Shown: piece by piece, positions 1,222-22,337 of the stretch
How the letters are laid out: every line of letters begins with the position of its first letter
Numbering within the stretch: position 1 is the first letter of the stretch
NCBI GenBank assembly: GCA_963836205.1
Contig: CAWIIV010000003.1
Span: 1 to 27,221 of the forward strand
Reading direction: 5' to 3'
Origin: an uncultured Acidimicrobiia bacterium
Lineage (GTDB): Bacteria; Actinomycetota; Acidimicrobiia; Acidimicrobiales; AC-14
DNA: 27,221 bases
Program-made: the position numbers and the translations under genes
The notes under the pieces: model-generated
The model's input: only the letters and a program-made list of their open reading frames with translations
Databases searched by the model: none
Told to the model about the DNA's origin: nothing

Positions 1222-1227
1222 GATCGC

Positions 1228-4019: not shown

Positions 4020-4037
4020 CCCCGGGTCGGTGACCGA

Positions 4038-5543: not shown

Positions 5544-5559
5544 ACGCTCTCCGGGCGCG

Positions 5560-5606
5560 AAAAGGGCGCCCACTCGGCTGACGGCGGACCAGCCGAGAAG
5601 GGCGCC
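5560..5606 (-). terminator. Intrinsic terminator-like hairpin between convergent genes
   Basis: Minus strand GGCGCCC-TT-CTCGGCTG-(9 nt loop)-CAGCCGAG-T-GGGCGCC followed by CTTTT. Confidence 0.55.
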
Positions 5607-5698
5607 GGCCCATATGTTGGCGGGTTCCGCGCCGCTATGCAAGACAGACCGGTCAGTCGCCTCGATTTCTTTCCGAAACCGCTCGGCGGCCGGGCCGT

Positions 5699-5719
5699 GA
5701 CCCCGGCGGCTCCGGGGTC
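5699..5719 (-). terminator. Hairpin just after the UBP-ZnF stop codon
   Basis: GACCCCGG-(5 nt)-CCGGGGTC perfect 8-bp stem; no U-tract. Confidence 0.4.
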
Positions 5720-5723
5720 GAAG

Positions 5724-6014
5724 TCACGGGTGGTGGAACGAGGGGGCGCCGGGGACGAGGAAGGCGACCTCGTCGACGTAGCACCACCACCACTCCTCAC
5801 CGGGCTCGTAGGTCTGGATCAGGGGGTGGGCGGTGCTGCGGAAGTGGGCGGTGGCGTGGCGGTTGGGGGAGCTGTCGCAGCAGCCCACGTGGCCGCACGC
5901 CATGCACAGCCGCAGGTGGACCCACCGCCCGCCGATGGCCAGGCAGTCCTCGCACCCGTCGGCGTGGGGCGAGACGGCGGCGGCCTGGTCGAGATGGGTG
6001 CAGGTGTCGGGCAT
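5724..6014 (-). CDS. UBP-type zinc-finger protein, 96 aa
   Basis: CTHL, GCEDC, WVHLRLCMACGHVGCCDSSPNRHATAH and EPGEEWWWCYVDE motifs; ATG at 6014. Confidence 0.9.
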   Translation of the reverse strand: MPDTCTHLDQAAAVSPHADGCEDCLAIGGRWVHLRLCMACGHVGCCDSSPNRHATAHFRSTAHPLIQTYEPGEEWWWCYVDEVAFLVPGAPSFHHP

Positions 6015-6031
6015 GGGTCCCCTCTGGTGTA

Positions 6032-7432
6032 TCAGCCTCGGGCGCAGGATGTTCCCGGACGGCGGGCGGCGGTCGACCAGTCGGGATCGTCGGTGCGGGG
6101 CCAGTAGTCGCCGGTCCCCGGGTCCTGGTCGTAGGGGACGGGCGGGTCGTCGCCACCGGCGATGGCGGCTACGGCGGCCAGGAAGCGGTCGATGTCGGCC
6201 GCAGTGGTCGACAGCCCGGCGCTGGCCCGCACCGCGCCCGGGATGTGGCGCCGGTCGCCCCGAAGCACGGCCGACCGGTACGAGGCGACCTCGCCCTCGT
6301 CGAGGCCGAGCAGGCGCAGGAGGTAGGGGTGGGCGCAGAAGCACCCGTGGCGGACGCCGATGGCGTGCTCCGCGCTCAGCCGGGCCGCGACCAGGGCGTG
6401 GTGGACGCCGTCGACCACGAACGTGGCCAGGGGCAGGGTGGGCGCCCCCAGGGCCGGGCCCAGCAGGTGCACGCCGTCGATGGCGGCCAGCCCGTGGCGG
6501 AGGCGGTCGGCCATGGCGTCGTCGTGGGCGACGATGGCGGGCCAGCCGAGCTTGGCCAGCTCGTCGATGGCGGCGTGGAGGGCGATCGCGCCCACGACGT
6601 TGGGCGAGCCCGCCTCCTCCCGCTCGGGCGGGTCGGTCCACACCACCTCGTCGAGGTCGACCAGGTCGACGGCCCCCCCGCCGGCCAGGAAAGGGTCGCC
6701 CGTCTCGAAGGTCGACCGGGGGCCGACCAGGACGCCCCCGCCGTAGGGGGCGTACATCTTGTGGCCGCTCCAGGCGAGGAAGTCGGCGCTGGCGGGAAGC
6801 GGGCGGTGGGCCGCCAGCTGGGCCGCGTCGACCAGCACCGGGATTCCCCGCTCGTGGGCGGCGGCCACGATGTCGTCGGTGGGTGGAATCCAGCCGGTGA
6901 CGTTGGACGCACCGGTGACGGTCAGCAGCCGGGGCCGGGGCCCGTCGTCGAGGACGGCCGCCACGTCGTCGGCGTCGAAGGTGCCGTCGGGCCGGCACTC
7001 CACGTACCGGCGGCGGGCCAGGCGGGCCCAGGGGAGGAGGTTGGCGTGGTGCTCGACGACGGTGGTGACCACGACGTCGTCGGGCGCCAGCCGCAGCCGG
7101 TAGGCGAGGTGGTTGACGGCCTCGGTGGTGTTGCGGCAGATGATGGCCACGTCGGTGGCCTCGTTCTTGCCGGCGAAGGCGAGGGCCGCGGCCCGGGCCT
7201 CCTCGTACTCGGCGGTGGCGAGCTGCGACTTCCACCCCGCCCCCCGGTGCACGCTCGAGTACTGGGGCATGAAGTCGGCGACCCGCTGGGCGACGGCCGG
7301 CAGGGCACTGGTGGACGCGGCCGCGTCGAGGGACAGGTAGGGCCGCTGGAGACCGTCGATGCAGGGTGCGCTCAGGCCGTCGCCGACCAGCTCGACGCCG
7401 AGACTGTCGCCTTCCGGCGCCTGATCCGGCAC
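6032..7432 (-). CDS. Class V aminotransferase, SufS-type cysteine desulfurase-like
   Basis: LDAAAST, YSSVHRG, EHHANLLPW, DAAQ, SGHKMYAP (PLP Lys), EAGSPN, RHGCFCAHP (catalytic Cys motif). Confidence 0.9.
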   Translation of the reverse strand: MPDQAPEGDSLGVELVGDGLSAPCIDGLQRPYLSLDAAASTSALPAVAQRVADFMPQYSSVHRGAGWKSQLATAEYEEARAAALAFAGKNEATDVAIICRNTTEAVNHLAYRLRLAPDDVVVTTVVEHHANLLPWARLARRRYVECRPDGTFDADDVAAVLDDGPRPRLLTVTGASNVTGWIPPTDDIVAAAHERGIPVLVDAAQLAAHRPLPASADFLAWSGHKMYAPYGGGVLVGPRSTFETGDPFLAGGGAVDLVDLDEVVWTDPPEREEAGSPNVVGAIALHAAIDELAKLGWPAIVAHDDAMADRLRHGLAAIDGVHLLGPALGAPTLPLATFVVDGVHHALVAARLSAEHAIGVRHGCFCAHPYLLRLLGLDEGEVASYRSAVLRGDRRHIPGAVRASAGLSTTAADIDRFLAAVAAIAGGDDPPVPYDQDPGTGDYWPRTDDPDWSTAARRPGTSCARG

Positions 7433-7438
7433 GCCCCC

Positions 7439-7444
7439 ATTCTA
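7439..7444 (-). promoter_or_regulatory. -10 element for a leaderless desulfurase transcript
   Basis: TAGAAT 6 nt upstream of GTG 7432 on the minus strand. Confidence 0.55.
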
Positions 7445-7498
7445 CCGGCCACCCGTATTTCGGTGGCACGTCCCGGGGGGGTCGGCGAAGCTCAGGCC

Positions 7499-8059
7499 GT
7501 GCGCCACCTGACGAGGGACGAGCTGGCCGCGGGCCTGGACGACATCGCCCGGTCGCCGGTGGACGGCGGGCGGGTCGAGCTGATCGTCCGCCGGCCGTCG
7601 CCGGGAGCGCGCCAGATCCTGGCCGAGGGGACGCTCGACCCCGACCTCGGCCTGGTCGGAGACGGCTGGCAGGTGCTCGGCTGCCCCGACACCCCCGACG
7701 GATCGTCGCACCCCGACATGCAGCTCACCGTCATGAACGCCCGGGTCGCGGCCTTGCTGGCCGTCGACCCCGACCGGCGGGCCCTGGCCGGCGACCAGCT
7801 CTATCTCGACCTCGACCTCGGCGTCGACAACCTGCCGCCGGGATCCCGCCTGGCCGTCGGATCGGCCGTCATCGAGGTCACCGACCAGCCCCACCTCGGC
7901 TGTCCCAAGTTCGCCGCCCACTTCGGAGGGTCCGCCCTCCGCTTCGTGAACTCCCGGGCGGGACGCAGCCTCCGACTGCGGGGGGTCAACGCCAAGGTGA
8001 TCCTGGGCGGGACGGTGCGGGTGGGCGACCGGGTGGAGAAGCTCCGTGCCGCCTGCTGA
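7499..8059 (+). CDS. MOSC-domain protein, 186 aa
   Basis: 3' part of ORF 6245..8059 from GTG 7499; GLVGD, AGDQLYLDLDL, GSAVIEVTDQPHLGCPKF, RGVNAKVILGGTVRVGD. Confidence 0.85.
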   Translation: MRHLTRDELAAGLDDIARSPVDGGRVELIVRRPSPGARQILAEGTLDPDLGLVGDGWQVLGCPDTPDGSSHPDMQLTVMNARVAALLAVDPDRRALAGDQLYLDLDLGVDNLPPGSRLAVGSAVIEVTDQPHLGCPKFAAHFGGSALRFVNSRAGRSLRLRGVNAKVILGGTVRVGDRVEKLRAAC

Positions 8060-8077
8060 CCGCCGCCGAATCGCCCG

Positions 8078-8590
8078 TCAGCCCGCGGGCTCGACCTCGA
8101 AGATGTCGGCGGGGGCGCTGGCCATGAGGCGGTCGGCCATCGCCTGCTTGAGGGCGGTGAAGCGGGCCTCGTCGGCGGGAGTGCGGTCGGGCTTGCGGGC
8201 CATGGCCACGAACTCGTCGGTGACCTGCCCCTCCCGCACGAGGAGCGTCACCGCGGCGTCGCCGTAGCGGGGGCGGAAGACGAACTGCTCCAGGGTGGTG
8301 CCCCGATCGGGGCGCTCGAGGGCGGCGTCGACGAGGTAGCGCCCCTCGGTCAGGCCCCGGGTGACGAGCTCGAACGCGTCACGGGCGCCCGGGCCTCGGA
8401 AGGCGGTCTCGATCACGATCCGGCGGCGCTCGAGGGGCCACTCGGGATCGAGGAGGGGAAAGGCGAGCTCCATGGCCTTGAAGGCCATGGCCACTCCGGC
8501 CGGGCTGCCGGGTCCGCTGTAGCGGAGCATCTCGTCGAACGAGAAGGCCAGGGCCACCCCGTCGTCCACCACCTCCAGCACGTTCCTCAC
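8078..8590 (-). CDS. Conserved hypothetical protein, possibly FmdE/FwdE-like
   Basis: GC3-rich ORF; YSGPGSPAGVAMAF and GPGARDAFELVTR loosely resemble FmdE-like proteins; leaderless start (TACGAT at 8602-8597, then 6 nt, then GTG). Confidence 0.7.
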   Translation of the reverse strand: MRNVLEVVDDGVALAFSFDEMLRYSGPGSPAGVAMAFKAMELAFPLLDPEWPLERRRIVIETAFRGPGARDAFELVTRGLTEGRYLVDAALERPDRGTTLEQFVFRPRYGDAAVTLLVREGQVTDEFVAMARKPDRTPADEARFTALKQAMADRLMASAPADIFEVEPAG

Positions 8591-8653
8591 GTACCGATCG
8601 TACGACCGGGCGGCCTATGGTCCTGACCAGGCCCCGTCCACCAAAGGAGACCG

Positions 8654-9310
8654 ATGAAGGTTGCGATGCTGGGAACGGGCGTGGTCGGCCAGACCCTCGG
8701 CACCCGGCTGGCCGGCCTGGGCCACCAGGTGATGATGGGCGCCCGCCAGGCCGGCAACGAGAAGGCGGCGGCCTGGGCCGCGGGGCTCGGGCCGTCCGCC
8801 TCGGCCGGCACCTTCGCCGAAGCCGCCGCCTTCGGCGAGCTGGTGGTCAATGCCACCGCGGGCTCGGTGTCGGTCGAGGTCCTCACCGCCGCCGGCGAGG
8901 ACAACCTGGCGGGCAAGGTCGTGCTCGACGTCTCCAACCCCCTCGACTTCTCGAAGGGCATGCCGCCGACCCTCTCGGTCTGCAACACCGACTCCGTGGG
9001 CGAGCAGCTCCAGGCCCGGTTCCCCGCCGTGCGGGTGGTCAAGTCCCTCAACACGGTCAACGCCGACGTGATGGTGCACCCCGAGATCGTCCCCGGGTCG
9101 CACACCATGTTCCTGTGCGGCAACGACGCCGACGCCAAGGACGAGGTGCGGGCGGTGCTGGAGAGCTTCGGCTGGCCCGCCGCCGACCTCCTCGACCTGG
9201 GCGACATCGGCGCCGCCCGGGGGATGGAGATGTACCTGCCCCTCTGGCTGCGCCTGTGGGGCGCCACCGGCACCGGCCACCTCAACGTCAAGGTCTGCGT
9301 CGGGACCTAG
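8654..9310 (+). CDS. NADPH-dependent F420 reductase family oxidoreductase
   Basis: AAGGAG SD; Rossmann LGTGVVG, LDVSNPLD, VVKSLNT, LDLGDIGAARGME. Confidence 0.9.
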   Translation: MKVAMLGTGVVGQTLGTRLAGLGHQVMMGARQAGNEKAAAWAAGLGPSASAGTFAEAAAFGELVVNATAGSVSVEVLTAAGEDNLAGKVVLDVSNPLDFSKGMPPTLSVCNTDSVGEQLQARFPAVRVVKSLNTVNADVMVHPEIVPGSHTMFLCGNDADAKDEVRAVLESFGWPAADLLDLGDIGAARGMEMYLPLWLRLWGATGTGHLNVKVCVGT

Positions 9311-9496
9311 TGCCGCGTCAGGCAACGTCGGCCCTGTCCGCCAACGGCACCTCGGGGACACGCTGGCAACGGCAGGGGACCAGCATTATTGGGGCCACGT
9401 TCTGGGCACACCACCGCACGTCGCCAGCGCGCCCCGAGCCGTCGATCTGTACACATCGGCCGGCCCGGACGCCAGTAAGGGGCATCTACTCGAGAA

Positions 9497-9599
9497 TTGC
9501 GGGTCAGCGCAGCTACCGGCGTCGACGATCCTGGAGCACAACCCCTCGCAGCCCCTCTACCTCCTGACCGAACCGGACATGGGATACCGCTTCGTCCCC
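9497..9599 (+). pseudogene. Relic of the C-terminus of a KdpE/OmpR-family response regulator
   Basis: 9531-9599 translates LEHNPSQPLYLLTEPDMGYRFVP; LRV, AQL and RR pieces lie just upstream in shifting frames; no start codon and no receiver domain. Confidence 0.6.
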
Positions 9600-9676
9600 G
9601 GCCCGCCGTCGAACCCGGCTGATCGGGCGTATACGCTTGCTCCTTCGTCGCCCGGCGGGCGACATAGAGGCGGACG

Positions 9677-10336
9677 ATGGCGACGCTGAGCACCACGACG
9701 ACGAACGCGGGCCTGCGAAGAACCACGAGGCGGGCCGGGTTGGTGGGCTTCCTCCTGGCGGCGATGGTGGCCTGCAGCGGATCGGACTCGGACGACGGGG
9801 CGAGTCCCATCTCGGCCCCCGGGTCGACGCCGACGACGGCCGCCGGTGGGGGGTCGGGCGTGACCACATCGGCCCTGGCGCCCGTTACCACCGAGCCTTC
9901 CCGGCCACCCGCCACGAGGGGGCCTCAGACGGTCGTCGTCGGGCCCGTCACGTTCCACGTCCCGGCCAACTGGACCTCGTTCGAGAGCGGCGGCTCCACC
10001 TACGTGGGTGAGAGCGCGGGTAAGCAGGGACACATGAACCTCATCGTGACGACTGACTACGGCGGGACCGTCGACGCCCTCCGTCACGACCGGTGCCAGG
10101 GTGACGGGACCCACGAGTCGAAGCCACCAGCGAACGTGGAGCTGATCGAGTCGGGGTTCGAACCGGTGGGCCGCGCCACGGCCGAGTTCCGCCGGTGGCG
10201 TTTCGCCTGCCCGGACTCCGAGATCACGGTCGAGGAGCACCGGGCCTGGCTCCTTCCCGTATCCCGCGTCGGGATCGTCGAGCAGCGCCACGTCCCCCAG
10301 GTGCTCGACGTGGTCACGACCGCCGAGGTGGCCTGA
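9677..10336 (+). CDS. Putative lipoprotein
   Basis: Basic N-region, hydrophobic stretch, MVAC lipobox-like site, Ser/Thr/Pro linker, then a folded domain with two Cys. Start uncertain. Confidence 0.7.
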   Translation: MATLSTTTTNAGLRRTTRRAGLVGFLLAAMVACSGSDSDDGASPISAPGSTPTTAAGGGSGVTTSALAPVTTEPSRPPATRGPQTVVVGPVTFHVPANWTSFESGGSTYVGESAGKQGHMNLIVTTDYGGTVDALRHDRCQGDGTHESKPPANVELIESGFEPVGRATAEFRRWRFACPDSEITVEEHRAWLLPVSRVGIVEQRHVPQVLDVVTTAEVA

Positions 10337-10455
10337 CCCTCCCAAGGAGATGGCGGGCCGCGGGTTAGGCCTGGGGGCACCATGGCCAGGTTGAGGCACA
10401 GACGCCTAGGGCACTCATCACCCCGAGTTACCTCACAAGATGTATGCTTATCTGC

Positions 10456-10650
10456 ATGCGGAGCACCAGCGTTCGCATCGATGTAGCCACACACGAAGAG
10501 CTCAAACGACTTGCCGCGGAACTCAACACCACGGTCGGCAACACCGTGTCCCTTGCAGTTCGCGCGCTTCGCCAAGACCGCGTCGGCGCGGACCTCGCGG
10601 CACCGCTTCGTGAGAACGAGACTGCCTGGCTCGATGCCGACGTCGGGTGA
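10456..10650 (+). CDS. Putative type II antitoxin, ribbon-helix-helix-like, 64 aa
   Basis: TSVRIDVATHEELKRLA beta-alpha start; acidic tail WLDAD; overlaps the toxin gene; TATGCT -10 (10443-10448) lies 7 nt before ATG 10456. Confidence 0.75.
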   Translation: MRSTSVRIDVATHEELKRLAAELNTTVGNTVSLAVRALRQDRVGADLAAPLRENETAWLDADVG

Positions 10651-10975
10651 TGTCGTCGATCTCGAGCTAGGCCCGCCGGAAGGACGAGAGGCGGGATTCC
10701 GCCATCCAGCGATCCTCGTTACGGCCGAACGAATCCTCGATGCCCGACCCTCGGTCGTCCACGTCGTCCCGCTTACGAGCAACATTCGCTCGTTCCACTC
10801 CGAGGTGGTGCTCGAGCCCGACAGCAGCAACGGCCTCGACGTCGCATCGGCGGCGCAGTGCCAGCACATCCGAGCCGTCTCGCCACATCGGATCATCGAC
10901 GTACGCGGCAACGTCGGCACGACCGTGCTGAGCCAGCTGCGCGAGACCATCGCCGTCATCCTCGATCTGCCCTGA
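10634..10975 (+). CDS. mazF: PemK/MazF-family endoribonuclease toxin, 113 aa
   Basis: GDVVDLELGPPEGREAGFRHPAILV, VVPLTS, NGL...SAAQCQHIRAVSPHRI. Confidence 0.9.
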   Translation: MPTSGDVVDLELGPPEGREAGFRHPAILVTAERILDARPSVVHVVPLTSNIRSFHSEVVLEPDSSNGLDVASAAQCQHIRAVSPHRIIDVRGNVGTTVLSQLRETIAVILDLP

Positions 10976-11434
10976 CGACGACAACGTCGCGCGATATGGC
11001 ACGAGAGCGCCACCCGTAGCCGTCGTTCTGGTCGCGCTTGGGGACGTAGCGATGCGAGGATCGCGAGCCCGTCGTGCGTCGCCTACCCGATCGCAGCTAA
11101 TCCGCGTAGCCCGCGAGAGCGGAGTTGAACTACGTCGATGGACGTCGTCACTATCGCCGTCAACGACAACGAAAGGCTCGGCTTCGCCATGGAGGACAGC
11201 GCCCGGTCGCGGGAGAGGTGCTCGTCCGTTCCGGACATCCAGCTGCTGAGTCTCGCAGCGAACCTCGCTCGCGAGGACGCCGATTTCCCATCGCTGGGAC
11301 CATGGAAGCGAATACGCCCGACGACCCCGTCGGGGCCTCTATGTCTTCCGTTCCTCCTGCACGCTCCTCGTCATGCTGGGCTGGCCGCGGCCTGACGTGT
11401 CGCCCGCGTATGCTCACTGGCGTGACTCCATTAC

Positions 11435-12703
11435 GTGGAACGCTATCCGAGCGCTAACGGGGTGGATCCTTACGACGTCTTCGTACCGGCTGGCTTACCG
11501 ACCATCACCTACAACCCACGCGAGTCGACTGGATTAGAAGACAAGATCCGGCAATACCTCAGGGCGCCGCATAGTATCCTGACAATCTCCGGTCACACAA
11601 AAAGCGGTAAGACCGTATTGTTGAAGAACGTCCTCACCGACGAGCACGTCTGGCTTGAGGGCTCATCGATCAGTTCGGAGAAGGATATCTGGACGCAGCT
11701 CGCTTACGCCATGGGCATATACGAGACGGAGCATTCCAGTTTGACTCACTCGACGGCGGATGACTCCGGACGCTCGGCCGGACTCAACGTTCCAGTTGCG
11801 CAGACGTCGCGTTCACATCAAGAGCGTGAAAGCATCGAGAGGTCTCGGGACCACACGCGAGTGGTACCCGTACAGGCCTCCGTCATCAACAAATTGAAGC
11901 GCTCGCCAATTCCGATAGTAATCGACGACTTTCATTTTGTCAGTGGCGAGACGCAGGAAAGGTTTGTACGCGGCATTAAGCCTTGCCTCCTCCACGGGCT
12001 GCCCGTTGTCTTGCTTGTAGTACCTCACAAAGCGAATGAGGCGGTTCAGGCAGAACCGGAGATGAGCGGTAGAGTCACGAATGTCCGGGTGCCGCCCTGG
12101 CGCGCCGACGAGCTGCGACGAATCGCCCAACTTGGGTTTAGCGCACTCAACGTCGAGCTGTCCGAGGGCTTGATGGACGACTTTGTGGATCAGTCTGCCG
12201 GTAGCCCGCTACTAATGCAGCAGTTCTGCCTTCAAGTCCTGATCTCCAGTGGGCGCCGTAGCGTTGTGTCGGGCATTACACACCTATCTCTCGCCGATCG
12301 AAGCGAATTCTTTGTTCAATGTGCGGAGGCTCTGACGGTTTCGATGGACTTCTATCGGATGTCGAGAGGTTCTCTCCGTGGCTCCGGAAGCAGGAAACAA
12401 ATGCTCGGCTCCTGGGGAGAAGAGGCCCGCGATATCTACGGGGTGGTCATGAACGCGATCACTGAGTGCTCTCCGAGTAACGCCATCACGTACCGACAGC
12501 TTCGAGCCTCGTTGGCCAGGTCGATCCGACCGGAGGACATGCCACGAAAGAACCAAGTTACAAGAGCCCTCCGTGAAATAGATAAGATTGCACGGCAGTC
12601 AACCGGGTCGCCGGTTCTTGAATGGGATGCGCGCGACGAGGTCCTTTACATTGTGGACCCGTTCTTCGCCTTTTTTGTCCATTGGGTGGCGCCAGGACTG
12701 TGA
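11435..12703 (+). CDS. P-loop (AAA+/STAND-like) ATPase with probable C-terminal winged helix
   Basis: Walker A GHTKSGKT, Walker B IVIDDFH, GSPLLMQ GxP helix, C-terminal VLEWD...LYIVDPFF. Confidence 0.85.
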   Translation: MERYPSANGVDPYDVFVPAGLPTITYNPRESTGLEDKIRQYLRAPHSILTISGHTKSGKTVLLKNVLTDEHVWLEGSSISSEKDIWTQLAYAMGIYETEHSSLTHSTADDSGRSAGLNVPVAQTSRSHQERESIERSRDHTRVVPVQASVINKLKRSPIPIVIDDFHFVSGETQERFVRGIKPCLLHGLPVVLLVVPHKANEAVQAEPEMSGRVTNVRVPPWRADELRRIAQLGFSALNVELSEGLMDDFVDQSAGSPLLMQQFCLQVLISSGRRSVVSGITHLSLADRSEFFVQCAEALTVSMDFYRMSRGSLRGSGSRKQMLGSWGEEARDIYGVVMNAITECSPSNAITYRQLRASLARSIRPEDMPRKNQVTRALREIDKIARQSTGSPVLEWDARDEVLYIVDPFFAFFVHWVAPGL

Positions 12704-12756
12704 CGGAAGGACACGCACGCAAGCGATGACAACTCACTACTGGAAGACATCCACTC

Positions 12757-13869
12757 ATGGGTAAGACGCATCGAGTACTGCTAATTACGACGGGCGGATC
12801 ACTCATCGCTGGCCTAGTCGCATCGGAACGAGGTCATTCCTCGCACGGTGGTAAGGATGCCGATGTTGAGCGGCTCGTTAGCCCTGCGATCGACTTTCTA
12901 AACCGCCAGTTCGGCCTTAACATAGAGTTGGAAACTGTCGCACTGTACGACATTGAGAGTTCTGATCTCGGACCGACGCATTGGAGCGAACTCGCTGGCC
13001 TGATCGCAGAGCGCTATGATGACTACGACTCCTTTATTGTCTTCCACGGGCGCAGCACATTAGGTTATACGGCGGCGGCCCTCTCATTCGCGTTAGCGAA
13101 TCCCAACAAGCCTATCTTGTTGACGGGATGCCAGCTGCCGTTTGGTGTGCCGGGCTCAGACTGTCTCAGCAACATTGAGAACGCACTCCGCCTGGCCGTT
13201 TGGAGCCGACACGATCGAGTTCCACTGGTCGGTGTCTTTGTCGTGTGGGGAGGCGAAGTCATCACTGGAACCCGAGTGAGAAATACTTCATCGACTTATG
13301 ACTCGTTCGAGTCGTCTAGCTTAGGAAAAGTTGGGCGAGTGGGTCGCGTGATCACCATCAACGAGTTGAGCCTCCAGCGCCACCTTGGCTATCTAAGTAC
13401 CAACATGTATCCTCGAGCCCATTCAAGTAGAAGCTTGATATGCCAAAACGACTTTGACATGCGGATCGCCTCGCTGACGGAGTTTCCCGGCATGTCGATG
13501 ACGCAACTGAGCAGGCTTGCCAACGACGACGACGTCAAGGGTTTCATCATTCGTTCGTTCGGAGCGGGGGCGCCAAGTTCCGACCTGATTCGGACCCTCG
13601 AGCACTTAAGAGATCGGCAGATACCCGTAGTCATCACTTCACAAACGGAATATGAGATCAGCAACTTCCTCGCGAACGAGTCCGGAATTGTTCTTCGTAA
13701 TAGGAGTCTCGCTATTCCTGCGTACGACATGAGTATTGAAGCTCAGACGACGAAGTTGGGTTGGTTACTCGCCCGCCAGCGGTCCGGCCAGATTGGGTAC
13801 GAGGGAGTTTGTGCTGAGATGGTTCATGATTTGCGCGGGGAAATCCAGGTCATGTGGGACGTCGGATGA
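12757..13869 (+). CDS. Type I L-asparaginase-fold protein with degenerate active-site motifs
   Basis: LLITTGGSL, IESSDL, HGRSTLGYTAAALSF, KPILLTGCQ, FGAG, IPVVITSQ, DMSIEAQTTKLGWLL, DLRGEI are collinear with AnsA-type enzymes. Confidence 0.85.
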   Translation: MGKTHRVLLITTGGSLIAGLVASERGHSSHGGKDADVERLVSPAIDFLNRQFGLNIELETVALYDIESSDLGPTHWSELAGLIAERYDDYDSFIVFHGRSTLGYTAAALSFALANPNKPILLTGCQLPFGVPGSDCLSNIENALRLAVWSRHDRVPLVGVFVVWGGEVITGTRVRNTSSTYDSFESSSLGKVGRVGRVITINELSLQRHLGYLSTNMYPRAHSSRSLICQNDFDMRIASLTEFPGMSMTQLSRLANDDDVKGFIIRSFGAGAPSSDLIRTLEHLRDRQIPVVITSQTEYEISNFLANESGIVLRNRSLAIPAYDMSIEAQTTKLGWLLARQRSGQIGYEGVCAEMVHDLRGEIQVMWDVG

Positions 13870-13889
13870 ATCGATCAGGACGGCGGGAC

Positions 13890-14054
13890 TCAGGACGCGT
13901 CTTCCGGCATCCCCATCGCTACATTTGGCCAGCCGAACTAGACCAGATGGGTCGCATCGCTGGCTTCACGCTCGAGAGCCGCCACGGCGGCTGGAACGCT
14001 GAGCCCTTCACGGCGGACTCATCGGATCACGTACCCATCTATCGCGTCGCCTGA
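13890..14054 (+). pseudogene. 3' fragment of an actinobacterial class I SAM methyltransferase
   Basis: HRYIWPAELDQMGRIAGFTLESRHGGWNAEPFTADSSDHVPIY matches the C-terminal pattern I recall for that family; no SAM-binding N-terminus. Confidence 0.65.
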
Positions 14055-14370
14055 CCCCACCTCGCCTTGGCGTCCTCCGCGCCCTATTCGGCGATCTGAT
14101 CACACGGGCGCACCGGCCGAGGTGTCCCGGAACGCCCCCCGCACGGCGGTTCGCGACGTGTCCCAGACCGCCGGCTCGAAGGCGCGACCCGACGACGGAA
14201 TCGTGCCTGACGTAGCACTGGACGGCGTTGCTCTAATCGTCTTCCACAGCGCCGCCACCGCAAAGGCCCCACGTCACAGCGTCAAGAAACTGTCAGATTC
14301 TCCAGAACGGCCAATTGCTCATCAGCGTCCAAGCCTTGGCGCGCCGGGCGCACCGGCTGGTCAGGGCTGG

Positions 14371-14763
14371 TCAGGGCTCCAGCAGGCCGGGGTGGGCGGG
14401 GACGTCGACCGCGTGTTCCCGGAGGGCCGCCAGGGGCACGATGTCGAGGGCCCGCTCGTGGGTGCAGGCCAGGACCACGAACGAGGCCGCCCCGTCGCGG
14501 TGGGCCCGCAGCCAGTTGGCGGCCGTCACGCACCAGCGGTCGCCCGGCCGGAGTCCCGGGAAGCGGAACTCGGGTCGGGGCGTGCTCAGGTCGTTGCCGA
14601 TCCGGCGCTGGTGGTCGAGGAACTCGGCGGTGACGACGGCGCAGATGGTGTGGCTGCCCCGATCCTCGGGCCCCGTGCTGCAACATCCGTCCCGGTAGAA
14701 GCCGGTGACCGGGTCGGTGCCACACGGCTCCAACTCGCCTCCGAGCACGTTGCGTTCGGCCAT
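14371..14763 (-). CDS. DUF2237 family protein
   Basis: NVLGGELEPC, TGFYRDGCC, GNDLSTP, FPGLRPGDRWC, THERAL. Confidence 0.9.
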   Translation of the reverse strand: MAERNVLGGELEPCGTDPVTGFYRDGCCSTGPEDRGSHTICAVVTAEFLDHQRRIGNDLSTPRPEFRFPGLRPGDRWCVTAANWLRAHRDGAASFVVLACTHERALDIVPLAALREHAVDVPAHPGLLEP

Positions 14764-14812
14764 CCCCGCAGTATCGCCCGTGACGCCCGCGGTTGCCCGT
14801 GCGCCCGGGCGA

Positions 14813-15271
14813 TCAGACCCAGTAGCGGGGGGGGCAGTTGAAGGCTTGGAGGAGCGGCACTCGGCTGGGGTCGTCGTGCATGCCTTGAACGTCGTAGGTG
14901 TTGTTGATGTCGGCGCACTTGATCGGGTCGTAGGGCGGGATCGTGGTGGTGGTGACCAGGCTGGTCGGCGGCTCGGTGACCGGCAGCTGCGTCGTCGGCG
15001 GAATGGTGACGATGGTCGCCACGGTCGTCGCCGGGCGGGCGGTGGTCGGCGGGGCGGCAGTGGTCGTCGGCGCGGGCGCGGCGGTGGTCGTGGTGGTGGA
15101 CGGTGCCCGGGTGGTGGTGGTGCGGGCCACGGTGGTGGTCGTCGACTCGATGGCCGTGGTGGACGCCACCTGGCGCATGGGCCGGTCCTCCTGACCGAGG
15201 ACGACGCCGACGCCGACCGCCGACAGGAAGATCGCTGCGAGCAGGCCGACGAACAGCCTCGTCCGGTTCAT
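14813..15271 (-). CDS. Exported or membrane-anchored Thr/Pro-rich protein
   Basis: N-terminal hydrophobic signal, poly-Thr low-complexity stalk, small C-terminal domain with two Cys. Confidence 0.7.
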   Translation of the reverse strand: MNRTRLFVGLLAAIFLSAVGVGVVLGQEDRPMRQVASTTAIESTTTTVARTTTTRAPSTTTTTAAPAPTTTAAPPTTARPATTVATIVTIPPTTQLPVTEPPTSLVTTTTIPPYDPIKCADINNTYDVQGMHDDPSRVPLLQAFNCPPRYWV

Positions 15272-15278
15272 AGGAGCG

Positions 15279-15307
15279 TTATCGGCACGAAAGTGGTCCG
15301 CCTGTAG
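15279..15307 (-). promoter_or_regulatory. Sigma28 (FliA/WhiG)-type promoter, leaderless
   Basis: TACA-N16-GCCGATAA (perfect sigma28 -10), 7 nt before ATG 15271. Confidence 0.55.
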
Positions 15308-15377
15308 GTCATTCGGACTACTCGGAGCCCCTTTTTGGGCGCCCGCGGACGCTTACGGACGGGCCGTGGCCACCGTC

Positions 15378-15395
15378 GGGGCCGTCACCGGGCCT
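15378..15395 (-). repeat. 18-bp inverted repeat, copy 1
   Basis: Reverse complement AGGCCCGGTGACGGCCCC is identical to 22314-22331. Confidence 0.5.
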
Positions 15396-15439
15396 TCGCC
15401 GACGGGAGGCGGGCGCTGGTGGCGGTGGTCACCCACCCG

Positions 15440-15468
15440 TTGTCGACCACCGGTCGCACCCGCTTGAG
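15440..15468 (-). promoter_or_regulatory. Putative sigma28-type promoter
   Basis: CTCA-N17-GTCGACAA, 7 nt before GTG 15432. Confidence 0.3.
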
Positions 15469-15966
15469 CCCGGGCGAGAAATGGGCGGGGATTGGCTGAC
15501 TGGTCCGGCACCGAACGGGGTAAGGGAGGCCCGATGACGGGCCGGTATACAACGGTGACCACGGCATCGGCGGTAGCCGGTGCCCCCACGGAAGCGCACC
15601 CGCCCCGGGCGACCGGCGGGGCTCGTCCGTACCGTCCGCACCCTCACGGGCCCGAACGGCCTCCGAAACATCGCCCCGCCGAGCATCCGACCGCGGTGGC
15701 CGTGTCCGTCCGAGATCCGCACCTCACCTCCTAAGCGGTCGGACTCCTCGCATGGCAGCCTCGCCGAGGACACCTCGGCTGACCCGGGTACTTCCCTCGA
15801 CCCTCTCGCCGCGTGCGGAGTCCTCTCCCGCGCCCCACCGGCACGACCTGCAGCCACGCGGGCCGATCCACCACCGCCAGCCCCTGCACCCCTGCTAGGC
15901 GCCATGGGCGTTCGCTCCCTTCCGCCCCCTTCCGAGTGGGCCGCCGTCCCCGAGAGGAGCGCGGAG

Positions 15967-17004
15967 GTGCCCCGGCTCCCCCCCCGCCGCAAAACCCACG
16001 GCCGACACCCCCGCCGCAGCCGGGCCCTGGCCGCCATCGGCCGCACCCCCCTCGTCGACGTCGCCCTGCGGGTGGACGGCCGGTGGCGCCGGGTGGGGTT
16101 GAAGCTCGAGTCGCACAACCCGGCCGGCTCGATCAAGGACCGGACGGCGTACTCCCTGATCCGCAGCCTGGAACGCATGGAGGAGCTGCGGCCCGGTGAC
16201 CGCCTGGTCGAGTCCACCTCGGGAAACCTGGGGGTTGCGCTGGCCCTGATCAGCCGGGAGCGGGGCTACACCTTTACCGCGGTCGTCGATCCCAAGGTCG
16301 ACCCGCTGGTCGTCGATCGGATCCACGGCCTGGGGGCGGAGGTCGTCCTGACCGACGAGGTCGACGCCACCGGCGGCTACCTGCTGTCGAGGCTCCGGTT
16401 GGTGGAGCAGATGGTGGCCGAGGACGGCACGGTCTGGCCCAACCAGTACGGCAACCCGGCCAACCCGGCGGTCCACTACCACCACACCGCACCCGAGGTC
16501 CGCCGCCAGGCGCCCGACGTCGACGCGGTGTTCGTGGCCACGTCGACCGGCGGCACCCTCGCCGGCTTCGGCCGCTACTTCAAGGCCGTCAGCCCGCGGG
16601 TCCGGGTGGTGGCGGTCGACGTGCCCGGCTCGCTGGTGTTCGGCACCACCTACGCCCCCCGCCTGCTCAACGGGGTGGGGTCGAGCCGCGCCTCTCAGTT
16701 CCTGAGCCCCGCCGACTACGACGACGTCGTCATCGTAGGCGACAGGGACGCCGTCGCCGCGTGCCACCTCATCCAGGGGTCGGTGGGCATCGGGCTGGGC
16801 GGCTCGTCGGGGGCGGTGGTGGCTGCCTGCGCCCGCTACCTGTCCGCCCATCGCGAGGTGCGACGGGCCGTGTGCATCTGCCCCGACGGGAGCGCCAACT
16901 ATGCCAGCAGCATCTACGGCACCTCCTGGCTGGCCCGGTTCGGCTTCCGCCCGGAGAAGGACGCGGCCGAGCTTCCCTTCGACGACGCCGTACTGGCCCG
17001 GTGA
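15967..17004 (+). CDS. sbnA: SbnA-like PLP enzyme of the cysteine synthase family (2,3-diaminopropionate biosynthesis)
   Basis: KLESHNPAGSIKDR, ESTSGNLG, SbnA-type GGYLLSRL, WPNQYGN, GSLVFG...GVGSSR, GGSSG. Start uncertain: GTG 15967 after GAGGAG, or ATG 15904. Confidence 0.85.
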   Translation: MPRLPPRRKTHGRHPRRSRALAAIGRTPLVDVALRVDGRWRRVGLKLESHNPAGSIKDRTAYSLIRSLERMEELRPGDRLVESTSGNLGVALALISRERGYTFTAVVDPKVDPLVVDRIHGLGAEVVLTDEVDATGGYLLSRLRLVEQMVAEDGTVWPNQYGNPANPAVHYHHTAPEVRRQAPDVDAVFVATSTGGTLAGFGRYFKAVSPRVRVVAVDVPGSLVFGTTYAPRLLNGVGSSRASQFLSPADYDDVVIVGDRDAVAACHLIQGSVGIGLGGSSGAVVAACARYLSAHREVRRAVCICPDGSANYASSIYGTSWLARFGFRPEKDAAELPFDDAVLAR

Positions 17005-18059
17005 GCGGCAACGGCGCCGGAGGCGCAACCCGCCCGCTGGAGAACGGCCTGCTCTACCTGAGCGAGGATGACGTCGATCAGGCCTGCCGGGAGGTCGACC
17101 CGGTGGCGTGTGTCGCCGACGCGCTGGCCCGGCTGGCGGCGGGTGAGGCCGAGGTCCCCGACGAGGCGGTGCTGCGCTGGGACCCCCGAGGCGGAGGCAT
17201 GGCCCGCACCCTGAACATGCCCGGGTTCATCGCCGGCCCGGTCCCGGTCCTGGGCACCAAGATCATCAACGCCAGCACCGAGAATCCCAGCCGGGGCCTG
17301 CCCCGGGCGGCCGGCCTGACCCTGCTGTTCAATCCCGTCACCGCCCGCCCCGAGGCGATCATCCAGGCCGCCGGCATCAGCGCCCTGCGGACGGCGGCGG
17401 TGTCGACCCTCGCCGCCCTCCACCTGCGCACCACCGGCCCCCAGACCCTGGGGGTCATCGGCGCCGGCCCCATCGCCCGGGCCCATGTCCTGCTGCTGGC
17501 GGAGCACATCGACCTCGAGCGGGTGCTGGTGTGCGACCACGCCACCGACCGGGCCCTCGGCCTCGTCCACCAGCTGCGGGAGGAGCCGAGGATCAGGCAG
17601 GTCGAGGAGCGGAGCGACCCGGAGAAGACCGTCCGCGACGCCACCATCGTGGTCACCGCCACCACGACCACCACCGCCTACGTCTGCCACGACTGGCTGC
17701 GGCCGGGCGCGGTGGTCGTCAACGTGTCCCTCGACGACGTGGAGGAGGAGGCCTACCTGCGGGCCGACCGGCTCTACGTCGACCATTGGGGCCTGGTCGT
17801 GGCCGACACCCAACGGCTGCTGGGCCGCCTGGCGCGGGCGGGCAAGGTCTGCGGACCGGGAGAGAGCGGCGAGGCCGGCGCCCGCCCGGTGGACGGGACC
17901 CTGGGCCAGTTGGTCACCGGAGCCTGCCCGGCTCGGGACGACGACGGCCAGATCATGCTCGTCAACCCCTTCGGCATGTCGATCGAGGACCTTTCCATCG
18001 CCAGCCGGGTCTACGAGATCGCCCTGCTCCGCAACTACGGTCTGTTCCTCGACCAGTGA
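17001..18059 (+). CDS. sbnB: SbnB-like ornithine cyclodeaminase/mu-crystallin family protein, 352 aa
   Basis: GTGA coupling; LLYLS, NMPG, NPSRGLPRA, ISALRTAAVS, GAGPIA, VNPFGMSIEDL. Confidence 0.8.
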   Translation: MSGNGAGGATRPLENGLLYLSEDDVDQACREVDPVACVADALARLAAGEAEVPDEAVLRWDPRGGGMARTLNMPGFIAGPVPVLGTKIINASTENPSRGLPRAAGLTLLFNPVTARPEAIIQAAGISALRTAAVSTLAALHLRTTGPQTLGVIGAGPIARAHVLLLAEHIDLERVLVCDHATDRALGLVHQLREEPRIRQVEERSDPEKTVRDATIVVTATTTTTAYVCHDWLRPGAVVVNVSLDDVEEEAYLRADRLYVDHWGLVVADTQRLLGRLARAGKVCGPGESGEAGARPVDGTLGQLVTGACPARDDDGQIMLVNPFGMSIEDLSIASRVYEIALLRNYGLFLDQ

Positions 18060-18983
18060 CCGCCCGCAGCATCATCTCCCTCGAGGACATCTCCACCGAC
18101 GACCTTCGCTGGCTGGCGCACCGGGGGTGTGCCTATGCCGAGGGCGCGGCCGTCGAGCGGGTGCTCTCCGGGCGGGTGGTGGCCGTCTACTTCCGGCAGA
18201 CCTCCACCCGCACCCGCACCGCCTTCTCCGCCGCCGCCCTCCGCCTGGGAGCCCAGAATCCTCACCTTCGGGCCCCACGACCTCCAGACCAACACCGGCG
18301 AGACCTACCTCGACACCGGCCGGGTGCTGGCCACCATGGTCGACGCCCTGGTGGCTCGCACCGCGGGCGACCCCGATGAGCTGCGCGACTTGGCCGCCCA
18401 GGGCCGGATGCCGGTCGTCAACGCCATGACATCCGACGAGCACCCGACCCAGGCCGTCGCCGACCTCGCCACCCTGCTCCAACACTTCGGACGTATCGAC
18501 CACCTGCGGGTCCTCTACCTGGGGGAGGGCAACAACTCCGCCTCCGCCCTGGCCCTGGCCCTGTCCCGGTTCCCCGGAAACGAGCTCTACCTGCGGACTC
18601 CTGCCGGCTACGGCCTGGCCGACGACAAGTTGAAGCTGGCGTGCGGCCACGCCGACGAGACCGGGAGCGTGGTCGACGAGCGTCACGACCTGGAGGGGCT
18701 CCCGGAGGCGGTCGACGCCGTCTACACCACCCGCTGGCAGACGACGGGCACCGCCAAGCCCGATCCCGACTGGCACGAACGCTTCCGGCCCTTCCAGGTG
18801 AACGACGACCTGATGGCTCGCTGGCCCGACGCCCGGTTCCTGCACGACCTGCCCGCCCACCGGGGCGAGGAGGTCACCGCCGAGGTGCTCGACGGCCCCG
18901 CCAGCCTGGCCCTGCCCCAGGCGGCCAACAAGTACCACACCGCCCTGGCCATCCTCGAGTGGTGCCTGGCCGGACCCCGATGA
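18056..18983 (+). CDS. OTC-fold carbamoyltransferase, frameshifted near 18257
   Basis: From GTG 18056 the frame gives TSTRTRTAF...LGAQ; removing one A at 18257-18258 continues into ILTFG...EHPTQ...GEGNN...TTRWQTTG...HDLPAHRGEEV...QAANK. Confidence 0.85.
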
Positions 18984-19897
18984 CCGCGGCCTGCCTCGAC
19001 CGGGTGTCGGCCTACCGCCACCTCACCGTCGCCGACCGGGACCCGCCCGACCGTCGGGGCATCTTCTTCGACCCGATCGACACCGAGGTCGGCGCCTGGG
19101 CGACCGTCGACCTGGTCGAGGAGGGGTCCACCGTCCTCGACCTCGGATCGGGCGGCGGCGCCGCGGCCGCGGCGGTGGCCAGGGCCGGGGCGGCCCACGT
19201 CCACGGCGTCGACATCTCCGAGGAGAGCGTCCGGTGGGCGTCGGAGCACCATGCCCTCGACGGGCCCGCCCGGCGGGTCACCTTCGGGCCGGCCGACTAC
19301 GCCTCGCTGACGACCTCCGCCCTGCTGGCGGCCACGCCCCTGTCCCGACCCCCGGACGTGGTGGCCAGCAACCCGCCCTACGTGCCGGTCCCACCGGTCG
19401 ACGGCTCGGGACGGGTCTCCATCGACGGCGGCCCCGACGGTCTCCGCCTGGTGCGGATCGTGGTCGGCCACGCCGAGGCGCTCGGGTCGGCGCTGTCGCT
19501 CACCATCGGCAGCTACTCCTCGCCCCGGCGGGCGGCTGCGTTGCTGGCCGGCTGCGGCTACCGGATCGCGGGCGTCACCCTGGCCGCGCTTCGCCTGGGC
19601 GACTACACCGTGCAGCACATGGACCGCGTCCTCTCCCTCGAATCGGCGGGGGAGGGACCCCTGCTGCGCACCGACGACGGCGCCGTCTCCTACCTGTGCG
19701 TGGGGCTCTCCTGCCGCCGGGACGCCGCGGACGACGCCGACGGCGGGCTCTCTCCGGACGGGTTGCTCCGCCTCCTCGACCATGCCTGCCGATCGCGGAC
19801 CACCCACCTGGAGGCCCTCGACCGGGCCACCGCCGCCTGCCCCGTCCCGGTGCGGGTGCTGGTCCTGCCCGAGGAGCACCGGCGTCACCATTGCTGA
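18980..19897 (+). CDS. Class I SAM methyltransferase, HemK/MTS-like, 305 aa
   Basis: ATGA coupling; VLDLGSGGG, GVDIS, SNPPYVP, DGGPDG. Confidence 0.85.
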   Translation: MTAACLDRVSAYRHLTVADRDPPDRRGIFFDPIDTEVGAWATVDLVEEGSTVLDLGSGGGAAAAAVARAGAAHVHGVDISEESVRWASEHHALDGPARRVTFGPADYASLTTSALLAATPLSRPPDVVASNPPYVPVPPVDGSGRVSIDGGPDGLRLVRIVVGHAEALGSALSLTIGSYSSPRRAAALLAGCGYRIAGVTLAALRLGDYTVQHMDRVLSLESAGEGPLLRTDDGAVSYLCVGLSCRRDAADDADGGLSPDGLLRLLDHACRSRTTHLEALDRATAACPVPVRVLVLPEEHRRHHC

Positions 19898-21021
19898 ACC
19901 TGACCGTGGGCGTCGAGGAGGAGTTCTTCGTGGTCGACGCCGCCACTCGCGAGCTGGCGGTCGACGCCACGCCGGTCCTCGCCGCCCTCGGCGGGCCCGG
20001 TACCGGATACCCGAGCTTCGCCGACGAGTTCCGGCTGAGCATGGTCGAGAGCCGGACCAGCCCGTGCGCCCGCCTGGACGGGCTGCGGTCCGAGCTGGCC
20101 ACCCTCCGCCGGCAACTCGCGGGGGCGGCGGCTGCGACCGGCCACCGGGTCGTCGCGGCCGGCACCGTCCCCCTGGGCGATTGGCGGAAGCAGGTGGTCA
20201 ACCCCAAGCCCCGGTTCCTCCAGGTGGCCCGCGACTACGCCCGCCTGGCCGACGAGCACGTGGTCTGCGGGTGCCACGTCCACGTCGGCATCGACGACCG
20301 TGACCTGGCCGTCGAGGTCATGAACCGGGTCCGGCCGTGGCTGCCCGTCCTCCTCGCCCTCTCGGCCAGCTCCCCGTTCTGGATCGGGGAGGACACCGGC
20401 TACGACAGCTACCGGAGCGTCGTCATGGGCCGATGGCCCCTCTCCGGAGTGCCTCCCCTCTACGACTCCTTCGAGGCCTACACCCGGTCGGTGCAGGCGG
20501 TGATCGACGCCGAGGTCGCGGTCGACGTCCGCCAGGCGTTCTGGGACGTGCGGCCGGGGGTCACCCACGAAACGCTCGAGTTCCGCGTCGCCGACTCCTG
20601 CCCGTCGGTCGACGACACCATCCTCCAGGCCGGCCTCGGCCGGGCCCTCGTGGGGACCTGCCTGGACGAGATCGACCGGGGCCGGCCGGCCACCGACCAC
20701 CCCTCCGAGCTGCTGCGGGCGGCCCGGTGGCGGGCGGGGCGATTCGGCCTGGGCGACCGCCTGCTCGACGCGCTCACGGGCGAGCTGCTGCCGGCGGCCA
20801 CCGTGGTGGACCGGTTGGTCGCGCACGTGGCCGATGCCCTGGAGCAGTCCGGCGACCGGGACGAGGTGACCACGCTCGCCGAGCAGGCCGTGCAAGGAGG
20901 GTCGTCGGCGGCACGCCAACGGGCCCGGCTGGCCCAGACCGACGACCTCGTGACGGTGGTCGACCTGCTGGCGGACGAGACGGCCCGGATCGAGGGATCT
21001 CAGAGATCGGAGCGACAGTGA
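19891..21021 (+). CDS. YbdK-family carboxylate-amine ligase (GCS2, glutamate-cysteine ligase-like)
   Basis: TVGVEEEF, CGCHVHVG, LALSASSPFW, WDVRP, TLEFRVAD; TTG start at 19891. Confidence 0.9.
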   Translation: MLNLTVGVEEEFFVVDAATRELAVDATPVLAALGGPGTGYPSFADEFRLSMVESRTSPCARLDGLRSELATLRRQLAGAAAATGHRVVAAGTVPLGDWRKQVVNPKPRFLQVARDYARLADEHVVCGCHVHVGIDDRDLAVEVMNRVRPWLPVLLALSASSPFWIGEDTGYDSYRSVVMGRWPLSGVPPLYDSFEAYTRSVQAVIDAEVAVDVRQAFWDVRPGVTHETLEFRVADSCPSVDDTILQAGLGRALVGTCLDEIDRGRPATDHPSELLRAARWRAGRFGLGDRLLDALTGELLPAATVVDRLVAHVADALEQSGDRDEVTTLAEQAVQGGSSAARQRARLAQTDDLVTVVDLLADETARIEGSQRSERQ

Positions 21022-22281: not shown

Positions 22282-22313
22282 GACCGCAGACGCCGGGGGA
22301 CGGCCGCCCAGGC

Positions 22314-22331: not shown

Positions 22332-22337
22332 CGCCGT

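Follow-up and report, generated by a model that had tools for sequence, protein, structure and literature searches.

We have focussed our analysis on a low-GC islet in the genome of an uncultured Acidimicrobiia bacterium (GenBank assembly GCA_963836205.1, contig CAWIIV010000003.1, positions 1 to 27,221; "the window" is this whole stretch of 27,221 nucleotides, which is also the whole of contig C3 of the 25-contig, 88.6% complete assembly, G000). The islet carries two open reading frames (ORFs) on the same strand and 53 nt apart, at 11435-12703 (+) and 12757-13869 (+). The first codes for an ATPase, P0001, and the second for a protein of the asparaginase fold, P0002, and they lie just downstream of a mazEF-type toxin-antitoxin (TA) pair. 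An initial annotation, made from the letters of the DNA, had described a foreign two-gene module with a possible role in defence or conflict. We found the foreign origin well borne out. However, a conserved two-gene module is not supported by the comparison of the two families, which were never found together outside the window (0 of 80 asparaginase loci and 0 of 102 ATPase loci). The islet is, in our opinion, probably a fragment of a defence island, in which a stand-alone candidate ATPase sits next to an orphaned asparaginase gene, either a relic or a remodelled gene. The main features are the following.

11029-14086, no strand: the islet, the sole part of the contig that is not repeated at ca. 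99% identity elsewhere in the assembly
11435-12703, + strand: P0001, predicted ORC/Cdc6-like AAA+ ATPase with a C-terminal winged-helix region (422 aa, GTG start)
11591-11614, + strand: Walker A of P0001, GHTKSGKT, residues 53-60, with Lys59 (from the translation)
11912-11935, + strand: Walker B region of P0001, IVIDDFHF, residues 160-167 (from the translation)
12704-12756, + strand: spacer between the ATPase and asparaginase genes, 53 nt
12757-13869, + strand: P0002, asparaginase-fold ORF, a diverged HGTNT-clade member left without its partners (370 aa, ATG start)
13045-13059, + strand: HGRST of P0002, residues 97-101, where the clade has HGTNT and canonical enzymes have HGTDT (from the alignment)

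The compositional contrast is large. Measured in 500-nt windows, the GC content was 0.516-0.584 across 11251-14000, against 0.65-0.66 at 10001-11500 and about 0.69-0.77 over the rest of the contig. The ATPase gene has a GC of 0.564 and a GC at third codon positions (GC3) of 0.652, with very similar values for the asparaginase gene (0.542 and 0.612), while the two flanking genes have a GC of 0.73 and a GC3 of 0.90-0.92. On the downstream side the low-GC DNA stops at the asparaginase stop codon, where it abuts a cut methyltransferase gene. These coordinates and values agree with what the initial annotation had said by eye about two co-oriented, low-GC genes.

That the islet is strain-specific can be seen in the assembly itself. 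Positions 1-11028 of the window recur on contig C4 at 98.9% identity and positions 14087-27221 at the end of contig C16 at 99.0%, in both cases without the islet, and 1-9886 recurs on contig C5 too. As the contig minus the islet is duplicated at ca. 99% identity on other contigs, the assembly bin holds at least two strains, and the islet DNA is foreign and present in one of them. Downstream of the TA pair, C4 (L192, G000:C4:20000-28608) codes for a DUF6653 protein, a Tn3-family transposase, a DUF6036 nucleotidyltransferase-like protein, a tyrosine recombinase and a MauE-like protein. A low-depth contig from an independent run departs from the window sequence at 11028 and continues exactly as C4 does. 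Two congeners that share the TA pair also differ after it, one having RibD_C-domain proteins there and the other a glyoxalase-family protein. The islet was not found in the 40 relatives searched, and in 7 of the 41 genomes (the window's own and an unpublished one, G009, counted) the match was confined to the TA part or to the remnant of the methyltransferase. When contigs were built from small shares of four sequencing runs, they contained the flanks only, plus one 217-nt piece of the islet (12487-12703). Repeats of the att type or inverted repeats flanking the islet were none of note (all 21 nt or shorter and imperfect), and promoter- or terminator-like sites were no more frequent than in shuffled sequence.

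Joint occurrence of the two families and the nature of the ATPase

We compared the surroundings of both families, for the asparaginase in the best 80 of 95 confirmed clade loci plus the window's own (up to 7 kb of flank on each side), and for the ATPase in 102 loci (80 metagenomic stretches, the best of 388 that were confirmed, plus the complete viral set of 22). The hidden Markov model (HMM) of the ATPase family, built on 89 of its proteins, matched in none of the 80 other asparaginase loci, so that the window's own was the only one of 81 with a match. Conversely, the HMM of the asparaginase clade had no match in any of the 102 ATPase loci, 73 of which have at least 1200 nt downstream. The initial annotation had named beforehand a lack of co-occurrence elsewhere as the finding that would speak against a module, and this is what was found. 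Because the two families never co-occur, a conserved two-gene module is not supported by these comparisons. The idea of a defence or conflict module survives in one part: each family by itself is found in defence-type surroundings. A complex prediction for P0001 and P0002 with alignments scored 0.01 (mark 0.32), which speaks neither for nor against binding.

It could be imagined that P0001 is a divergent form of the protein that usually precedes the asparaginase in its clade. This candidate was discarded, with an hhalign probability of 32% over 52 columns round the P-loop, and so was a relationship with the KAP NTPase found upstream of one divergent asparaginase, in locus L023 (BLASTP E 5.6). 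As far as these alignments go, the P-loop is all that P0001 has in common with the proteins that usually precede the clade asparaginase.

What P0001 resembles is another matter. The Pfam matches to AAA_22 and AAA_16 were both below threshold. A search with PADLOC, one of the checks proposed by the initial annotation, gave a clear match to the candidate PDC-S59 (E 7.4e-27, 92.5 bits), with residues 33-415 aligned on profile positions 25-400 of 428. In PADLOC-DB v2.0, PDC-S59 is a single-gene candidate without a curated cut-off; we take the "S" of the name to stand for single gene. Among 5.8 billion clusters we detected 93 relatives of P0001, the best of them 39% identical. Aligned with 42 members of the family (alignment A2), P0001 retains all 28 invariant columns, among them G53, K56, G58, K59 and T60 of Walker A and D164, D165, F166 and H167 of Walker B; across the alignment the two motifs read GxTKSGKT and DDFH. 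It departs from the family at 4 of the 51 columns conserved at 90% or more, the family median being 1 and the maximum 12.

The AlphaFold model of P0001 has a pLDDT of 86.7, with a low-confidence insert of 25 residues at 109-133. The best Foldseek match of the model was Cdc6 (1fnn, E 8.2e-11), and ORC2 (1w5s), 2qby and RFC subunits were also among the best, the top matches having E values of 8.2e-11 to 1e-6 and TM-scores of 0.43-0.50. CED-4 and the plant NLR ZAR1 rank only 34-48 in this search. Pfam gave neither an NB-ARC nor a NACHT match, and the 422 aa were found to contain no repeat domain. Judging from the model, P0001 belongs to the ORC/Cdc6-like AAA+ proteins; its C-terminus is winged-helix-like, and sensor repeats are lacking. 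Of the "STAND/AAA-like" label given to it earlier, the AAA+ half is borne out and STAND is not. Traces of NB-ARC do exist among distant members of the family (PF00931 in P0180, and P0199, which carries that name in its source). With the archaeal Orc1/Cdc6 initiators and the clamp-loader subunits (1fnn, 1w5s, 2qby, RFC), P0001 has in common the AAA+ core, the lid and the C-terminal winged-helix-like part, but sequence identity to them is just 9-16% and the genomic context of P0001 is mobile and of the defence type.

The neighbourhoods of the ATPase family contain no recurrent partner gene in the 102 loci. The biggest neighbour cluster, present in 10 of them, consists of phage structural genes. 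In eight loci (L166-L172, L177), all in P2-like prophages, the ATPase is flanked by the GPA replication gene on one side and by the portal gene on the other, a site that excerpts of an earlier study describe as the old/tin defence hotspot (PMC9122126). Elsewhere the neighbours include HsdM, DUF1156 and D12 methylases, a PD-(D/E)XK nuclease, SNF2 and DUF3427 helicases, TIR proteins and CI-type repressors, and also ordinary housekeeping genes. To judge by these neighbours, the pattern is that of a stand-alone defence candidate. P0001 resembles PDC-S59 in its near full-length match to the profile and in belonging to a family that stands alone, in prophage hotspots and beside restriction-modification genes. 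It differs in being diverged (its best relative is the one at 39%), and PDC-S59 is itself a candidate family. In other words, P0001 is a divergent PDC-S59 candidate of an actinobacterial type, in a clean strain-variable site, and would be convenient for a single-gene test. A second, distant member of the family was found in the same genome (G000:C20:130892-132454, HMM E 8.4e-20).

The asparaginase and its TIR-linked relatives

The asparaginase fold recognised by the initial annotation was confirmed, since both Pfam domains are above their cut-offs in P0002 (PF00710, 120.2 bits against 22.5; PF17763, 61 bits against 34.6). However, the protein stays under every NCBIfam cut-off (TIGR00519, 178 against 260.5; NF006998, 128.6 against 376; the GatD model NF003217, 125.4 against 310). 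The best sequence matches in the PDB have E values of 5.5e-29 to 1e-28. Like type I L-asparaginase (AnsA, 2p2d) and GatD, P0002 has both asparaginase domains and the Thr of the TGG motif (T12, at the nucleophile position); unlike them, it falls below the family cut-offs, lacks the aligned Lys and has HGRST where HGTDT is found in the alignment with E. coli asparaginase I (2p2d). In the E. coli asparaginases, catalysis relies on the TGG Thr as nucleophile and on a triad formed by the Thr and Asp in HGTDT and a Lys.

P0002 has hundreds of relatives of ca. 370 aa in very diverse phyla. None is more than 56% identical to it, the closest from metagenomes (P0003, P0005 and P0009) being 54-56% identical, and among themselves the relatives share about 75% column identity. 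They are recognised by four signatures, TGGT, HGTNT, RV(K/T)K and xGxGD, which in P0002 read TGGS, HGRST, RV-R and FGAGA. HGTNT is present in 191 of the 193 clade sequences, the exceptions being P0002 and L021 (a garbled copy, with HHEHT), so P0002 is the sole sequence with an intact frame and without this motif. The signature Lys (RVKK) is present in 192 of the 193, with a gap or Arg in P0002 alone, and the final Asp of xGxGD is lost, to Ala, again only in P0002. Over the 127 columns that are conserved at 90% or more, P0002 departs at 25, against a median of 2, which makes it the second worst of the 193 after the broken L021. In a FastTree phylogeny of 87 rows, it falls inside a 28-row clade (support 99) dominated by operon loci, on an end branch of 0.73 compared with a median of 0.17. 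Its exact sister is uncertain, and the pairing in the tree with L016, another long branch, is unreliable.

The changes in P0002 are spread almost evenly over the site classes. At columns conserved at 98% or more, the clade consensus is matched at 81% by P0002, at 99.5% by a typical member, at 94% by L016 (which served as an equally divergent comparison) and at 80% by the broken copy L021. P0002 has lost 40 and gained 18 FYMINK residues (Phe, Tyr, Met, Ile, Asn and Lys), a net loss like that of L016, and on these counts its divergence is in part compositional. GC pressure as the only cause of the long branch was rejected, as L016, which also shows a net loss of FYMINK residues, keeps the signature motifs. 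Among 32 pattern matches in viral contigs, there was no relative from the clade of P0002.

We grouped the 80 clade loci by tree, not by neighbours, into A (25 loci, the window's clade and its sisters, with the partial L051 placed by identity), B (15 loci) and C (40 loci). At least one partner family is encoded within 5 kb in 24 of the 25 loci of group A. A protein with an FGE-sulfatase domain lies directly upstream of the asparaginase in 18 of them, and 17 have a downstream protein with matches to tRNA_edit (YbaK-like) and to an Asp/Glu-racemase-like domain. Other partners are a tRNA_edit or TIR-tRNA_edit protein (10 loci), a pyridoxal phosphate (PLP) decarboxylase (8), a FAD oxidoreductase (5) and a separate TIR protein (4). 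The order in the operons is PLP decarboxylase, FAD oxidoreductase or EamA, then the FGE protein, the asparaginase, and the tRNA_edit (YbaK)-like plus racemase-like protein, often with TIR proteins next. In L012 and L013, for instance, the genes are EamA, a cyclase-like-FGE protein, the asparaginase, a YbaK/racemase protein and a TIR protein. The tRNA_edit and racemase matches are recurrent, with only some of them above cut-off. The loci and some of their proteins are the following (coordinates within each locus).

L002-L024, L062 and L066-L081: operon loci, for example L012:4529-10799, L013:81-6252 and L009:4072-9484
L004:4576-6141 (- strand), L015:8989-10566 (- strand), L024:7967-9562 and L016:5058-6737 (- strand): proteins of 520-560 aa with TIR (N-terminal) and tRNA_edit (C-terminal) domains, encoded beside the asparaginase
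L069:8216-10504, L080:3766-6030 and L075:3159-5330: TIR-asparaginase fusions with an N-terminal TIR (that of L075 just below cut-off)

The FGE protein has a variable N-terminal module, weakly cyclase-like in six loci (PF00211, 24-28 bits, cut-off 21.9), a KAP NTPase in L002, L017, L018 and L022, and a TIR domain in L062. Two loci depart further from the common plan. L023 (5407-8110) is minimal, with only a KAP NTPase without FGE domain and a divergent asparaginase, and in L024 (3487-9562) the asparaginase is preceded by a Metallophos-AAA_14-nSTAND4 protein and followed by a TIR-tRNA_edit protein. The TIR of the TIR-tRNA_edit proteins is of the CBASS/Pycsar effector type (CAP12-PCTIR_TIR, 76-86 bits; "Effector TIR" and PycTIR in PADLOC), and their YbaK-like part may be a ligand sensor. 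In group B there is a second, extra asparaginase of ca. 750 aa; in L069, L075 and L080, where it carries the N-terminal TIR, it is encoded directly after the clade asparaginase. Group C (L025-L061, mostly from Candidate Phyla Radiation (CPR) bacteria and DPANN archaea) shows no gene that recurs next to the asparaginase in its 40 loci and keeps all four signatures; its short branches span both domains of life, which suggests exchange between CPR and DPANN and a stand-alone role.

P0002 nests in this clade and, as in five operon loci, has an NTPase gene directly upstream, but the window lacks the FGE-domain, YbaK/racemase-like and TIR partners as well as the four signatures. Neither a partner gene nor a partner remnant was found in the islet (tblastn, all E values of at least 0.02). 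In the rest of the genome, 88.6% complete as it is, there was no match to the YbaK/racemase, TIR-tRNA_edit or TIR partners and only two weak matches to the FGE domain.

We found no description of operons with FGE, asparaginase and YbaK/racemase genes and TIR in the literature searched, and PADLOC v2 has no model for the asparaginase, the cyclase-type FGE partner or the YbaK/racemase protein. The initial annotation knew of no defence system with an asparaginase fold. This has become outdated, as the available excerpts of a preprint (bioRxiv 10.64898/2026.10.19.760177, October 2026) predict conflict systems in which V4R fused to ParA, TIR, HEPN or 2TM goes with an asparaginase-family gene, and propose that the asparaginase-family enzyme turns an amide substrate into a diffusible signal. 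Besides these excerpts, the parts of the literature that our search covered contained no text on asparaginase-family enzymes in immunity. As described there, the V4R-asparaginase systems offer a parallel in that an asparaginase-family enzyme, its gene next to those of TIR, HEPN or 2TM effectors, is predicted to act in immunity. They differ in that Pfam V4R or ParA was found in neither P0001 nor the scanned neighbours (the islet has no other genes), and in that the recurrent ligand-type domain of the HGTNT clade is tRNA_edit/YbaK-like. We believe that the TIR-linked HGTNT operons are a better lead than the window. The clade is widespread, and its operons have FGE sensors, KAP or cyclase-like modules, YbaK/racemase-like proteins and TIR effectors of the CBASS/Pycsar type, TIR-asparaginase fusions included. 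These operons fit, and would extend, the proposal in those excerpts that asparaginase-family enzymes make immune signals (bioRxiv 10.64898/2026.10.19.760177). The interest of the window itself is low to moderate.

Possible explanations for the islet

The explanation that we favour, and consider probable, is that the islet is the defence-island fragment introduced above, with a stand-alone candidate ATPase and an orphaned asparaginase. The DNA at 11029-14086 would have been acquired horizontally, in one strain, at a variable site just downstream of the mazEF-type pair. P0001, for which the fold, the intact ATP motifs and the genomic context were observed, would act alone as an ATP-driven switch. 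Its lid and winged-helix part may recognise a phage nucleic acid or protein, after which the protein would oligomerise and either phage replication would be blocked or the cell arrested. P0002 would descend from the TIR-linked operons, where its intact relatives appear to be the central enzyme, and would have been parted from the partner genes, probably by the same truncation that shortened the methyltransferase gene, to be now decaying or drifting to another role. With both the partners and the signature active-site residues lost, P0002 presumably no longer performs the ancestral reaction, and for the same reason the depletion of amino acids by P0002, one of the modes of action that had been put forward in the initial annotation, is unlikely. 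The adjacency of the two genes would then come from island shuffling and truncation and not from a conserved functional pairing. In this case adjacency and composition alone were not enough to turn a tidy pair of an ATPase and an odd enzyme into a system.

Several observations weigh against this explanation. P0002 is full-length and its frame is open, with three indels that are all in frame. In substitution-only simulations of 300 runs, a residue change of 10% left the frame open in 16% of cases, a change of 19% in 3.3% and one of 30% in 0.3%. An open frame after such heavy change being this rare, pure neutral decay is unlikely and was downgraded as an explanation; some selection on the protein seems to have persisted. 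Constraint on P0002 appears strongly relaxed or altered, but it is probably not absent. The two genes are co-oriented and 53 nt apart, no terminator-like site was detected in the spacer (12704-12756), and their GC and GC3 are nearly equal, so they probably arrived together and are probably co-transcribed. An NTPase directly upstream of the asparaginase also has precedents in the clade, in five or six loci. Both proteins of the window are singletons, with their nearest relatives at 56% (asparaginase) and 39% (ATPase) identity, and as the donor lineage is unsampled, a conserved pairing within it would have escaped these comparisons. Finally, PDC-S59 is a candidate family, and its name was not found in the literature searched.

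The same facts lend themselves to another explanation, namely a genuine two-gene system in which the ATPase captured an operon asparaginase that was then remodelled into a pseudoenzyme, serving as ligand sensor, scaffold or effector. The shared orientation, the short gap without a terminator-like site and the matching composition would be expected from it. An open frame in spite of heavy change at the former active-site positions is improbable under pure drift. Moreover, the upstream NTPase of the clade is variable, including the minimal pair of KAP NTPase and asparaginase in L023. We nevertheless regard this system as unlikely. The pairing was seen in none of the 80 and none of the 102 loci, and no gene of any sort recurs as a partner of the ATPase family. 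P0001 lacks an FGE domain and has only the P-loop in common with the usual upstream partners of the clade, and the changes in P0002 affect conserved and variable sites nearly alike, as they do in the broken L021. A more restricted version would be an immune pair that has escaped sampling, made of an ORC/Cdc6-like ATPase and an asparaginase-fold protein free of catalysis, acting as ligand sensor or oligomeric scaffold, with L023 as a parallel minimal form. To this version we give little credence.

P0002 could also be an amidohydrolase that is still active with a rearranged active site, a metabolic passenger beside an unrelated ATPase. It retains the nucleophile Thr (T12) of the TGG motif, both Pfam domains score well and the frame is open; the partnerless subclade of 40 loci indicates that a stand-alone life is possible for such proteins. 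However, opposite the HGTDT Thr and Asp of E. coli asparaginase I, P0002 has Arg and Ser, and the Lys found in 192 of the 193 clade members, the third residue of the triad, is missing. The TIGR00519 score is far under its cut-off (178 against 260.5), and the stand-alone subclade itself keeps all four signatures. We think an active enzyme quite improbable.

That the islet is an assembly artefact, i.e., a chimeric contig joining foreign DNA to host flanks, is very improbable: it is true that the window, 27 kb long, makes up an entire contig of an assembly that has 25 contigs and is 88.6% complete, that both flanks duplicate other contigs and that no read was seen crossing either junction, but the flanks differ by ca. 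1% from the copies on C4, C5 and C16, as expected from a second strain and not from the same reads used again, two false joins would be needed, the contig from the independent run leaves the window sequence at 11028 to continue as C4, marking a real rearrangement point, and two congeners diverge just after the TA pair as well.

The insertion site and neighbouring genes

The islet is bordered by a TA pair upstream and by a broken gene downstream, as the initial annotation had already noticed.

10444-10650, + strand: putative ribbon-helix-helix antitoxin, 68 aa, overlapping the toxin ORF (assigned by position and by eye only)
10511-10975, + strand: PemK/MazF-type toxin ORF (PF02452, PemK_toxin, 56.3 bits, cut-off 23.1)
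13854-14054, + strand: 3' remnant of a class I S-adenosylmethionine (SAM) methyltransferase gene, its last ca. 55 codons, starting directly after the asparaginase stop codon

The toxin domain spans residues 45-151 of the listed ORF, and the true start is probably near 10643. The 68-aa ORF has no Pfam match at E<=0.01. With the PemK_toxin domain above cut-off and a small overlapping ORF upstream, the pair resembles a type II TA system of the MazEF/PemIK kind. Unlike the two islet genes, it lies outside the islet and, together with the flank, is shared by the other strain and by congeners (ca. 99% identity on C4 of the same assembly, 95% in a congener). As it is kept with the flank, the pair marks the site and is no part of a module.

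Between the TA pair and the ATPase gene there is a stretch of 406 nt with 65% GC (11029-11434), whose short ORFs have no Pfam match and which has no other copy in the assembly. On the other side of the islet, the methyltransferase remnant has 76% DNA identity over 13871-14055 to an intact homologue of 260 aa in locus L189. Further downstream the window codes for a PALP-family enzyme (15580-17004) and then for an ornithine cyclodeaminase-family enzyme (16761-18059), a pairing that presumably resembles diaminopropionate synthesis of the SbnA/SbnB type.

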